From an uncultured Oscillospiraceae bacterium (lineage in GTDB: Bacteria; Bacillota; Clostridia; Saccharofermentanales; DTU023): a DNA stretch of 64,000 nt. This document shows positions 10,016 through 13,046 of this stretch, piece by piece. Each line of letters begins with the position of its first letter. The first letter of the stretch is position 1. Both the position numbers and the translations under genes were made by a program. The notes below the pieces were generated by a model. It worked only from the letters and a program-made list of their open reading frames with translations, was not told the origin of the DNA and did no database searches. The DNA lies in assembly GCA_964398655.1 (NCBI GenBank), contig CAYNNG010000001.1, positions 27,182 through 91,181 of the forward strand, given 5' to 3'.

Positions 10016-10339
10016 GTTTCCTCTTCCTTTCTGCTACGTCAGTGTGAGGTTCGTTTATTTATAATTATCTTATTAAGCTTACCGCTTAAGCGGGATTTTG
10101 CAACTATAAATGGTATGATTTCTACTATAAATGGTTGAGTCTCCACCTTTTATAGCGGCTTTATAGCTGTTCACGATTATAGCCCAAGCGGAAGTCTTGC
10201 GGCTACACTTCCCACCCGCTGAGCTCAAGACTTATCTCTATCTCACCATCAGGGCTTCAATAATCAGGGGTAAGTGGAACTCTGTATGCTCTACAGTTGA
10301 GTTATTAGCGGAGTTTCTAGTTGTGTTTCTAGTTGAACA

Positions 10340-12352
10340 TTAGTTGAGTTTTAGGTGAGTGTTTGTCAGAACAGACACACAGGAGGTCAAGGCTTCAAGC
10401 GCAGGGGCCAAATCTTCCTCCTTGAAATCGAAAGCAGGGTGGTGATGGGCAGTGACCGTGTCTGTACCCAGCATGAGGTGAATGGCCTGGCCTCCTTGGC
10501 GGAGGACTTGGTTCATCCAAGTGACCACATCCTCCGAGGCGGCAAAGTCTGGGCCCACCAGGGTCTTGAAGCCCAGCTTCGTTATTGTCTGCTGGACCGT
10601 GCGTCCCTGGTCCAAATAGGCCGGAAGATAGGCAGGATCCAGCGCTTCCGCGTAGCCCTCCCGCTCGAGCTGCCAGCTAAGGTCTCGCGCTTGGCAGTGG
10701 CCCTGGACCATGGCCTGCATTTTGCCCTGCAGGTCTTGTATAGTCGCCGTATCTGCCGCGCGGATTTCAAACTCCAATTGGGCATGCTCAGGAATCACAT
10801 TAGGCAGCCGGCCCGCCTCCAGTCTTCCTACATTCAGGAAAGCCTTACTGTGGCCATATTGGGTGAGAGTATGGAGATTTAAGGCTAGACCCGCTGCCGC
10901 CAGCAGGGCATTTTTCCCGGTCTCCGGAGCGGAAGCAGCATGTGCGGCTTGGCCCTGGATATCCAGTAAAAACTTCTGACTGGCTAGGAAACCCTGGGTT
11001 GCCAGCCCCACCGTACCCGAGGGGATGCCCAGGCCCAGATGGCAACCAAACATATAGTCCACTCCATCTGCCAGGCCTCGCTTAACCATGCTATAGGCTC
11101 CGCGGCAAGACTCTTCGGCCGGCTGAAAAATCAAGCGCACCCTGCCCTTGAGCTCAACCGTTTGAGCAATAACTTTAGCCAGGGCAAGTCCCAAAGCGAT
11201 ATGGCCATCGTGGGCGCAGGCATGGCAGGCTTGACCATTATTTTGCGAAAAGCCTTCACGTTCCGGCCTGTGGTCATCCGCTTGACTCTCCGCAATAGCC
11301 AGGCCATCAATGTCAAAGCGGAAAAGCAGGTAGGGCCCGGCTTTACCCGAATCCCAGTCTGCTATCACGCCGGTGTACGAGTCCAGGATTTCCTCAAAAA
11401 CCGCATCTGGGAGCGGCTTCTGGGGTGCATGGTTATGGGCCACGGGTATATCTAGGGACTGGTTACCTGGCCTTTGCTTGTCGGGCATTTGGCTATGGGC
11501 CGCAGTGCTGTTTGTCGCCTGACTGCTGTCGGTCTCCTGGCGATGCGCTGCAACGTTGTATGACGTCTGACTAGCTGCCGGCCCTAACTTGCTGTTAGCC
11601 TGCGCTTGAACTTGCGCAAAAAGCTTGGCCAAGTCTTCCCGCTTAACCCCACACTTAGCCTCATAATTCTTCTTAAACTCGGCACTCGGCAGGGCCAGGC
11701 GGTCTTCCGTATGTAAGGCCTTGCCCAACTGAACAGACCAGCCCAGGCCTAAGAGGCGGGAGGCAATCTCCAAGCTGGTACGGAACTCCAGCCAACCAGG
11801 CTCTGCGATACTATGGAAGAAACGCCGGTCAGAAATCAATTGTTGCGCTAGTTTGGCATTTTCTCGTGCATAGATCATACATTGTTCTGTTACAGGTGTA
11901 CCCAGCTTAATTTCCCGTTCATCGCCCTCAAAGCGGAAACCATAACGCGTATAAAAGCGTGCGGCGCGCTCATTCCCCTTTAAGACCCAAACAACTACTT
12001 CTTGAAAGTCTTTTAACCTCTCAAGAGCTGCATTCATCAATTCATATCCAACGGTGCTACCATGGTAAGCAGCCAAGACATAAATCGCATAAATTTCACC
12101 TCTGTGAGGAAGCTCCGAGTCCCGGCAAGCTCCATATACTACAAACCCTACAACCTCATCGCCGTCCTTGGCAATCAGAGTATGGTCTAGGTCGGTATGG
12201 GCTATACTACGGCACTTGTCTAACGTCATGCGTTCAAGAAAATTAGCGTCAATTAAGCCAGGATAGGTCTCATGCCAGGACTTCCAATGCACATAGCCCT
12301 TTCCTCGTATTTCATCTATCGTTTCAGGCTGCTTAATCGTAAATATGGCCAT
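10340..12352 (-). CDS. GNAT N-acetyltransferase fused to an M20D-type amidohydrolase/peptidase
   Basis: aa 1-165 is a GNAT fold (VVGFVVYG..IYAIYVLAAYHGSTVGYELMNAAL..RAARFYTRYGFRFEG). The rest is M20 (RRFFHSIAEPGWLEFRTS..ACHACAHDGHIALGLA..FQPAEESCRGAYSMV..FGCHLG), interrupted by a ~110-aa Q/S/A/T-rich insert. Confidence 0.8.
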   Translation of the reverse strand: MAIFTIKQPETIDEIRGKGYVHWKSWHETYPGLIDANFLERMTLDKCRSIAHTDLDHTLIAKDGDEVVGFVVYGACRDSELPHRGEIYAIYVLAAYHGSTVGYELMNAALERLKDFQEVVVWVLKGNERAARFYTRYGFRFEGDEREIKLGTPVTEQCMIYARENAKLAQQLISDRRFFHSIAEPGWLEFRTSLEIASRLLGLGWSVQLGKALHTEDRLALPSAEFKKNYEAKCGVKREDLAKLFAQVQAQANSKLGPAASQTSYNVAAHRQETDSSQATNSTAAHSQMPDKQRPGNQSLDIPVAHNHAPQKPLPDAVFEEILDSYTGVIADWDSGKAGPYLLFRFDIDGLAIAESQADDHRPEREGFSQNNGQACHACAHDGHIALGLALAKVIAQTVELKGRVRLIFQPAEESCRGAYSMVKRGLADGVDYMFGCHLGLGIPSGTVGLATQGFLASQKFLLDIQGQAAHAASAPETGKNALLAAAGLALNLHTLTQYGHSKAFLNVGRLEAGRLPNVIPEHAQLEFEIRAADTATIQDLQGKMQAMVQGHCQARDLSWQLEREGYAEALDPAYLPAYLDQGRTVQQTITKLGFKTLVGPDFAASEDVVTWMNQVLRQGGQAIHLMLGTDTVTAHHHPAFDFKEEDLAPALEALTSCVSVLTNTHLKLN

Positions 12353-12466
12353 AGCTCATTTCCCCTTTATATTTTTCTTCCTGCGTAACATTTTGTGCAA
12401 GTATAACTGATTGATAAAGAGCCGACTGTATATTTTAAGGTTCTCCATTTTTCAGGGTTAGGTAGT

Positions 12467-12722
12467 CGTAGGGAACTCGGCCGAATGGTTAAAATGCCTA
12501 CGGTTAAATCAGCTACGAGGGCTTGGGAGGCATAGGGAGATCCGCCAAATGGCTAAATTGCCTACGCTTATATCAGCTACGAGAGCTTATGAGGCGTAGG
12601 GAGATTAAGCAAATCACCGAAATGCCTACTACGATCTCAGCCCCAAAGGCCTAGTAAGCGTAGGCAAATTCATTGATTCGCCGAAATGCCTACTGCTTCC
12701 GGTGGATGGTGCCTGTGGATTT
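12467..12722. repeat. Degenerate tandem repeat, 64-nt period, about 4 units, each with a CGTAGG..CCTAC(G) inverted repeat
   Basis: Units start at 12467, 12531, 12595 and 12659. Units 1 and 2 are roughly 80 percent identical by eye; units 3 and 4 are decayed. The period is not a multiple of 3. Confidence 0.8.
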
Positions 12723-12830
12723 CAGAATATGGGGATTCCACAGGCATTTTCAGGGCAGGAGGGCACTTTGAACGCCTGTGAAATTTAAGAATTGACGATT
12801 CTCCAGGCAATTTAAGAATAAGAAAGAAAA

Positions 12831-12876
12831 TCGGAAAGAAAAAAGGAGCTGGTCCGCAGTGGGAACAGCTCCTTTT
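12831..12876 (-). terminator. Rho-independent terminator of the rplKAJL operon (bidirectional shape)
   Basis: AAAAGGAGCTG (12841-12851) pairs perfectly with CAGCTCCTTTT (12866-12876). On the minus strand the hairpin is followed by TTTTTTCTTTCC. Confidence 0.8.
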
Positions 12877-13046
12877 ATAGGTAAATTTGTGGGCAGTAAT
12901 GCTGCTAGCCAGGTTTTAAGTAGTTGTAGGTGGTGATGCCTATGGTGGCAATGACACCTACTTATCCACGCACTCATGCGCATAAGCGCTCACTACCATC
13001 AGCCTAGGCTGCCAGCAGGACTGCCGGAGTTGAAGTAAAGTTAAAA

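Follow-up and report, generated by a model that had tools for sequence, protein, structure and literature searches.

GNAT acetyltransferases and M20 deacylases are paired in several bacterial pathways, among them arginine synthesis with ArgA and ArgE. Other bacterial GNAT fusions combine the acetyltransferase with carbon-nitrogen hydrolase (nitrilase-superfamily) amidases and are conserved across many taxa. In the S-(2-succino)cysteine pathway of Bacillus subtilis, YxeL acetylates, YxeK breaks down and YxeP deacetylates (PMC9706529). AbgA of E. coli is a subunit of p-aminobenzoyl-glutamate hydrolase (PMC5082436), and a Klebsiella pneumoniae “aminobenzoyl-glutamate utilization protein” of the AbgA-like M20D type has been solved (PDB 3io1). 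The window analyzed here, a whole stretch of 64,000 nucleotides (64 kb) from an uncultured Oscillospiraceae bacterium, holds a gene that joins these two families in one polypeptide: a GNAT acetyltransferase domain is followed by an AbgA-like M20D amidohydrolase in a single open reading frame (ORF) of 670 amino acids (aa) and a stop codon, at window positions 10340..12352 on the (-) strand. The fused gene is real and no assembly accident, and by the searches made it is confined to one uncultured gut or rumen Clostridia species. We read it, with moderate confidence, as a young, species-specific fusion of two independent activities with no obligatory coupling.

Each of the described systems resembles this locus in part. 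The M20D half and 3io1 share the layout of catalytic domain plus lid, the Cys/His/Glu/His/His ligand blocks and an N-terminal RRxFH...E.GW.E helix segment, and the loop that carries an insert in the window is already enlarged in AbgA-like enzymes; the differences are the N-terminal GNAT and a loop ~74 aa longer. Unlike the abg operon, the fused gene lies between rplL and serS, which are likewise the neighbors at related loci. None of its immediate neighbors is a transporter, and phmmer searches of the 64-kb window, with either an AbgB-like protein or the M20 part as query, detected no AbgB-like partner. The “AbgA” names of homologues stem from automatic annotation. The Yxe system also brings a GNAT together with an M20D-type deacylase, and YxeP (PDB 1ysj) is a homologue of the M20D half (E=1.6e-31). 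Its members, however, are separate proteins of a conserved operon with a transforming enzyme and a transporter between the two steps, whereas the fused locus has no such clustered enzyme and no conserved linkage. Similarly, the GNAT-nitrilase fusions hold an acyl-CoA N-acyltransferase and an amide-hydrolyzing domain in one polypeptide, but with a Cys-Glu-Lys nitrilase fold in place of the two-metal M20 enzyme, and the fusion described here is not conserved across taxa. The GNAT half itself is closest to a stand-alone 164-aa family of gut and rumen Clostridia (e.g. P0121-P0240), which it matches in length, end residue and the invariant residues GKGYVH.KSWHE, YVL..YHG..VG and WVLKGN..A..FY..GF; it differs in lacking the stop codon, so that it continues into the M20D, and in nine unique substitutions. 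Among the papers searched, none describes a GNAT-M20 architecture. The fusion is a new domain arrangement of two large, well-known families, with no new chemistry indicated.

Both halves are complete, as a first-pass annotation made from the letters alone had proposed, and the motifs that it quoted are all found: YVLAAYHGSTVGYELMNAAL (residues 91-110), ARFYTRYGF (131-139), TGVIADWD (328-335), HACAHDGH (377-384) and FQPAEE (409-414). Pfam matches to the fused ORF place GNAT PF00583 at residues 49-140 (58.2 bits, cutoff 20.7), with further matches of this half to PF13508 (45.4 bits, cutoff 27) and PF13673 (36.7 bits, cutoff 23.6). In the second half, Peptidase_M20 PF01546 covers residues 343-658 (71 bits) and M20_dimer PF07687 covers 461-553 (50.7 bits). 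Among NCBIfam models the M20D half reaches the “amidohydrolase” subfamily TIGR01891, of the M20D/Ama/HipO type, at 225.9 bits (cutoff 153.75), and no equivalog-level model. An AlphaFold2 model built on a 109-sequence alignment has a mean predicted local distance difference test (pLDDT) score of 84 and a predicted template modeling (TM) score of 0.72, with both domains mostly above 90 in pLDDT. The frame opens with ATG, and a Shine-Dalgarno-like AAAGGGGA, read from the sequence as its ribosome-binding site, lies 9 nt 5' of it (12361..12368, (-)). The conserved residues whose loss from either half might have spoken against an intact fusion are kept in the family alignments of both.

The M20D half spans residues 168-670 and the stop codon (10340..11851, (-)) and consists of a catalytic domain and a lid/dimerization domain (461-553). 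Its best solved relative is 3io1 (E=3e-76); the alignment is split, pairing query 167-225 with chain 11-70 and query 314-656 with chain 84-425. A Foldseek search with the model also places 3io1 first (E=6e-30, TM(target) 0.78-0.82), followed by 4ewt, 1ysj, 6slf and 1xmb. The HACAHDGH block (11201..11224, (-)) aligns with HACGHD of 3io1, 1ysj and 4ewt; C379, H381, D382 and H384 are invariant, C379 and H381 being metal ligands, and a metal-bridging Cys is typical of M20D (PMC11511702). In the FQPAEE block (11111..11128, (-)), F409, Q410, E413 and E414 are invariant, with E413 as the putative general base and E414 as a putative metal ligand. The further ligand candidates H438 and H636/H637 are kept and invariant, as are the lid residues E529 and R531. 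As a set, the two-metal ligands of M20D do not vary among the 12 homologues aligned, and they line up with the ligand blocks of the same three structures. Family membership suggests that this half would probably hydrolyze an amide of the N-acyl-amino-acid, dipeptide or aminobenzoyl-glutamate type by a two-metal mechanism. The fused protein ends in …THLKLN, where sister orthologues have …PKDRR and similar tails, and a degenerate 11-12-nt tandem repeat (AGTTGAGTTTT, ~5.7 copies) at 10295-10360 extends over the gene's 3' end, including the stop codon.

The GNAT half (residues 1-164; 11861..12352, (-)) is equivalent to an entire free-standing GNAT gene. Closest to it are free-standing proteins of ~164 aa from Lachnospiraceae and Oscillospiraceae metagenome-assembled genomes (MAGs), 58-65% identical end to end, and they end at the residue aligned to query E164. 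When this half was searched alone, only free-standing proteins were matched. Among solved structures, the probable acetyltransferase of Thermus thermophilus (1wk4/2cy2) is the nearest. In an alignment with 11 relatives, the core residues G98, G102, N127, Y134 and G138 are kept and fall in invariant columns. The β4-α3 region YVLAAYHGSTVGYELMNAAL (residues 91-110; 12023..12082, (-)) is, by family alignment, the presumed acetyl-CoA pyrophosphate-binding loop. Here the protein and its whole subfamily depart from the canonical Q/R-x-x-G-x-G/A: the loop reads H97-G-S-T-V-G102 (consensus YHGxxVG), so that the last Gly is kept and the first and fourth positions differ. The model has a strand and helix order that fits the GNAT fold (strands 58-63, 66-75 and 85-92, helix 101-112, strand 118-124, helix 128-137, strands 139-150 and 152-162), with pLDDT mostly 85-97 for residues 1-130 and block means of 78-82 over 131-160. 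This half would probably acylate an amine from acyl-CoA, an activity proposed from family membership.

The two halves meet at nt 11849-11863 (residues 164-168), within the range of 11840-11870 that the first reading had given. The M20D orthologues begin MPALP|LAQQLIADRRFFH, and their alignment runs from query L168 onward. The order in the fused protein is consequently the natural GNAT C-terminus, a three-residue linker N165-A166-K167 (NAK; 11852..11860, (-)) in place of the GNAT stop codon and the first ~5 M20D codons, and then M20D residue ~6. The peptide region ...IYARENAKLAQQ... spans the join. In the model, the last GNAT strand (152-162) is continued without a break by the first M20D helix (163-180). 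The possibility that the M20D half is translated on its own was rejected, since M159 (nt 11876-11878), the sole in-frame ATG nearby, is not preceded by a Shine-Dalgarno-like sequence. An out-of-frame ATGCC also lies at the junction, where the window has aATGCCaaa and sister species have ATGCCt; this 5-mer match is too weak for the claim that a 7-nt deletion left it as a relic of the former M20D start.

Several lines of evidence establish that the frame is not a product of sequencing or assembly. Six further assemblies, from six samples and different projects, contain the 2013-nt gene without a single difference, on contigs of up to 205 kb with gene order kept on both sides, and the leaders upstream of it differ from the window at 0-4 bases. 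Two more full-length 670-aa alleles come from three further samples, P0241 differing at 11 codons and P0243 at 6. The fused ORF thus occurs in at least nine independently assembled samples and in three alleles in total, with no stop codon or frameshift in any of them; source samples include ERZ12298779, SRR14812354 and ERR13763381. The assemblies were made by different pipelines, comprising contigs of the SPAdes/MEGAHIT type from the European Nucleotide Archive and Logan. A sharp change in GC at the junction could in principle suggest a chimeric contig, and two adjacent genes joined by a sequencing frameshift had been named beforehand as a possible source of the ORF. Either artefact is highly improbable: junction and frame recur across these samples, pipelines and alleles with flanks that are the same but not identical, synteny is conserved on both sides, and the M20D gene retains no separate start or ribosome-binding site of its own.

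The fusion is narrowly distributed. P0002-P0005, which match the whole protein most closely, are M20D-only proteins of 467-481 aa with 62-71% identity and come from sister species. In these species, represented by the “Clostridiales bacterium” MAGs W0P39.007 and SUG1750 of a species-representative genome set, the slot is identical (rplJ-rplL-[M20D]-serS-DUF4015-yigZ-yebC) and no GNAT gene stands beside the M20D. A HMMER pass over 1.84 billion representative proteins gave 326 matches at E<=1e-30, and lengths were checked for the best 150 (>=184 bits); all of these 150 are <=485 aa, and none is a second AbgA-like M20D with a GNAT. Viewed from the other half, an M20 gene lies near a GNAT homologue (up to 8 kb on each side) at 1 of 37 loci, and no family recurs as a neighbor at more than 6 of the 37. 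An apparent neighbor cluster of 25 loci proved to be an antisense ORF of the GNAT homologue itself. No further M20 or GNAT of these types was found in the window. One candidate for a second fusion, in a Lachnospiraceae MAG (L047, 6010-8343), was rejected: its 777-794-aa frame ends in a GNAT of this family, but that GNAT starts at a Met of its own (MNIELKKMESDDE...), and the frame appears to be continued, free of stops, from glycosidase/hydrolase-like sequence upstream. This run-on may be an effect of MAG assembly or of a pseudogene.

Composition distinguishes the two halves sharply. The GC content at third codon positions (GC3) of the GNAT half is 0.42, against a mean of 0.627 +/- 0.057 for the remaining 37 genes in the window; across 189 sliding windows over these genes, GC3 goes no lower than 0.482. 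The M20D half, including its insert, has a GC3 of 0.60-0.64 and so a native composition. The GNAT half falls below every sliding window, which together with the sharp seam points to its recent import as a foreign gene.

These observations suggest how the fusion may have arisen. In the proposed course of events, ~1 kb of foreign DNA would have inserted after the rplL terminator and ahead of the 5' end of the resident M20D gene. With it would have come a free-standing 164-aa GNAT gene, complete with ribosome-binding site, and a repeat-rich leader. Loss of the GNAT stop codon and of the first ~5 M20D codons would then have left the NAK linker and one 670-aa frame. Because such an insertion would displace the M20D start and its upstream signals, the in-frame join may be the variant that kept the M20D expressed, from the GNAT start. 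The locus would then be a datable case of the birth of a bifunctional protein, in which a foreign gene is captured in frame at the 5' end of a resident one, with the unfused ancestral state still visible in sister species and the compositional seam still sharp.

Selection on the gene can be followed at two depths. Against sister species, the M20D half has a ratio of nonsynonymous (dN) to synonymous (dS) substitution rates of 0.07-0.11, as expected of purifying selection. It is nevertheless more diverged than its surroundings: comparison of window 10340-11860 with a sister orthologue (L001 6001-7404) gives 77% aa identity versus 91-99% for flanking genes, a dN of 0.156 versus 0.01-0.05 in neighbors and a dS of 2.2 versus 0.2-1.0. 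This divergence may reflect replacement of the allele by recombination, or else an unusually high rate of evolution at the locus. Relative-rate counts against unfused orthologues (26 vs 24 and similar) give no acceleration of the M20D after fusion. Within the species, comparison with the allele L054 finds nine nonsynonymous and two synonymous differences in the fused gene, as opposed to 6 and 11 in 2524 neighboring codons (Fisher p=0.024); the nonsynonymous density is 5.7-fold that of the neighbors (p=0.001) and the synonymous density is equal. None of the allele differences is at a metal ligand, three are in the insert region and one, V101A, makes a position of the presumed CoA-binding loop polymorphic (V/A) within the species. 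In the GNAT half, nine substitutions are unique at sites invariant in 11 relatives (M9P, Y38F, N57H, V60I, F88Y, S114K, A120V, D142E and R158C), and lineage-specific changes modestly exceed those of the closest relatives, e.g. 18 vs 5. By these counts the fused gene is weakly constrained and not visibly broken.

How the two activities relate to each other is the question on which the possible explanations divide. Tolerance of both additions, the GNAT and the insert, fits a fast-evolving and weakly constrained M20D gene. Several points weigh against the reading of a young fusion with independent activities. The single 74-kDa product is a prediction from the ORF. The independence of its halves is argued from a lack of conserved linkage, and coupling may have newly evolved in this species. 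The fusion survey reaches M20 parts like this one (>=184 bits), and other M20 subfamilies may hold GNAT-M20 fusions. Intergenic DNA of the sister species is too diverged to give precise insertion boundaries, and the raised dS could mean that the M20D segment was itself replaced by recombination. Moreover, the sole locus with an M20 near a GNAT homologue (L046, Butyrivibrio sp. SIG341 contig SVFV01000092.1, 76-3206) has three same-strand genes in a row, encoding an AbgB-like M20 peptidase (476 aa), a CobW/zinc-chaperone-like GTPase (370 aa) and the GNAT homologue (171 aa, ~42% identity), and the Yxe proteins show that a GNAT and an M20D deacetylase can serve one pathway (PMC9706529). The last two points would also support a functionally coupled bifunctional enzyme, a “Rosetta stone” in which the GNAT N-acylates and the M20D removes the N-acyl group from the same or a related molecule, for protection and deprotection, acyl exchange or proofreading. 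Both active sites look intact in the alignments, the three-residue linker holds the domains close, YxeP is the second-best solved relative of the M20D half, and the frame is open in all three alleles. Such an enzyme is nonetheless unlikely. It would exist in one species, while sister species use the M20D alone at the same site; the GNAT is foreign in composition and hence recent, and its relatives lack a recurrent M20 neighbor; the adjacent rplL and serS encode neither a transforming enzyme nor a transporter; the gene shows an excess of nonsynonymous polymorphism; and action on the same substrate would be a futile cycle that burns acetyl-CoA. The coupled cycle of salvage, remodeling or proofreading on an N-acyl substrate that the first-pass annotation had entertained is conceivable as chemistry but finds no comparative support in a single-species fusion with a foreign GNAT, linkage at 1 of 37 loci and weak constraint.

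A different explanation is that the fusion is decaying: the insertion would have been neutral or mildly deleterious, either one half (the GNAT being the likeliest) or the whole gene would be dispensable, and the ORF would survive because the event is recent. The nonsynonymous excess, the changes at family-invariant GNAT sites together with the raised lineage-specific count, V101A in the presumed CoA-binding loop and a disordered insert growing inside an enzyme all point this way. We consider decay doubtful, however, since no stop codon or frameshift has appeared in the samples and alleles compared, all metal ligands and core GNAT residues are kept, and the M20D has a dN/dS of 0.07 against sister species with no acceleration relative to unfused orthologues. 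Several of the differences between the window and the other allele are derived or ancestral states at variable sites, and high nonsynonymous-to-synonymous ratios are common in very recent polymorphism. It is quite improbable, finally, that the fusion is adaptive and newly coupled, with GNAT and M20D acting in sequence on one class of gut metabolite. The M20D might, for example, remove one acyl group from an N-acyl amino acid and the tethered GNAT re-acylate the freed amine, or the pair might carry out N-acetyl protection and deprotection of a toxic amino-acid analogue. If so, the fusion would be a natural “Rosetta stone” that places an orphan GNAT family, widespread in gut Clostridia, in a functional context for the first time, and cooperation of the halves would likewise offer an initial clue to the function of the poorly characterized AbgA-like M20D enzymes of anaerobes.

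The low-complexity insert in the M20D half is a growing variable loop and not a distinct module. The first-pass annotation had described a disordered insert of ~110 aa within the M20 domain before TGVIADWD; the insert is indeed there, but its size was overstated and disorder is predicted for only part of it. Relative to 3io1, whose split match defines it, the extra loop comprises residues 226-313 (~88 aa, 74 net; 11414..11677, (-)) and lies between strand 206-211 and the helix 316-324/strand TGVIADWD. In AbgA-like enzymes the stretch from the first strand to the TGVxA strand is already elaborated. The first ~40 aa of the loop are common to four sister-species orthologues (...KCGVKREDLAKLFAQVQ...NHAxQxP...), and ~47 aa more are species-specific and absent from P0002-P0005. 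In the model, pLDDT falls below 50 at residues 212-223 and 263-311; the latter segment (~49 aa; 11420..11566, (-)) is rich in A/S/Q/P/T/N/H by composition count, predicted to be disordered and mostly species-unique. Local self-alignment detects two diverged tandem copies of a ~44-nt unit (~11538-11581 and 11490-11532; together 11490..11581, (-)), encoding ...AASQTSYNVAAHRQ and ...DSSQATNSTAAHSQ, with a score of 31 versus a mean of 16.6 and a maximum of 23 in 100 codon shuffles. The insert represents further expansion of a surface loop, partly via tandem duplication of this unit.

The DNA upstream of the gene also differs from that of sister species. Upstream of the fused gene lie rplJ-rplL, and serS, DUF4015, yigZ and yebC follow downstream. 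An intrinsic terminator of the rplJL operon, an inverted repeat with a 15-bp stem followed by a T-run (12841..12876, (-)), has homologous hairpins in the sister loci L001 and L011 and separates the fused gene from rplL transcription. The spacing from rplL to the gene is 694 nt here and 163-367 nt in sister species, and the extra leader DNA, which the sister species lack, lies downstream of the conserved terminator. Within it a 64-nt direct repeat with hairpins inside each unit occurs in approximately four diverged copies (12454..12700, (-); Tandem Repeats Finder period 64, 79-83% matches). The hairpins are of the GTAGGCA...TGCCTAC type, a pattern that occurs nowhere else in the window and had no chance matches in shuffles. 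This leader probably arrived with the GNAT, and its 64-nt repeats may be a small repeat element travelling with the GNAT cassette or a regulatory array. Apparent variation in repeat copy number at one locus (L053, leader of 849 vs 694 nt) was traced to an N-filled scaffold gap with duplicated edges.

A few minor features surround the locus. The stretch from the rplL stop codon to the rplL terminator is ~110 nt longer here (window 12880-13000) than at L001 5838-5900 and L011 7819-7880. A match to Rfam Thr_leader in these ~110 nt is below threshold (22.6 bits vs 55, E=0.39) and was treated as chance, and a His-rich spurious ORF (12750-12983) in the stop-to-terminator stretch is probably chance as well. 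Rfam detects no T-box in the leader or before serS, and PADLOC gives no match to a defense system in the window. One sister species has a small gene and a PemK-family toxin gene between serS and DUF4015 (L001 8926-9543, L002 4885-5502). Because this PemK-type pair is absent from the window, the conserved ribosomal/serS neighborhood appears to take insertions at several points.

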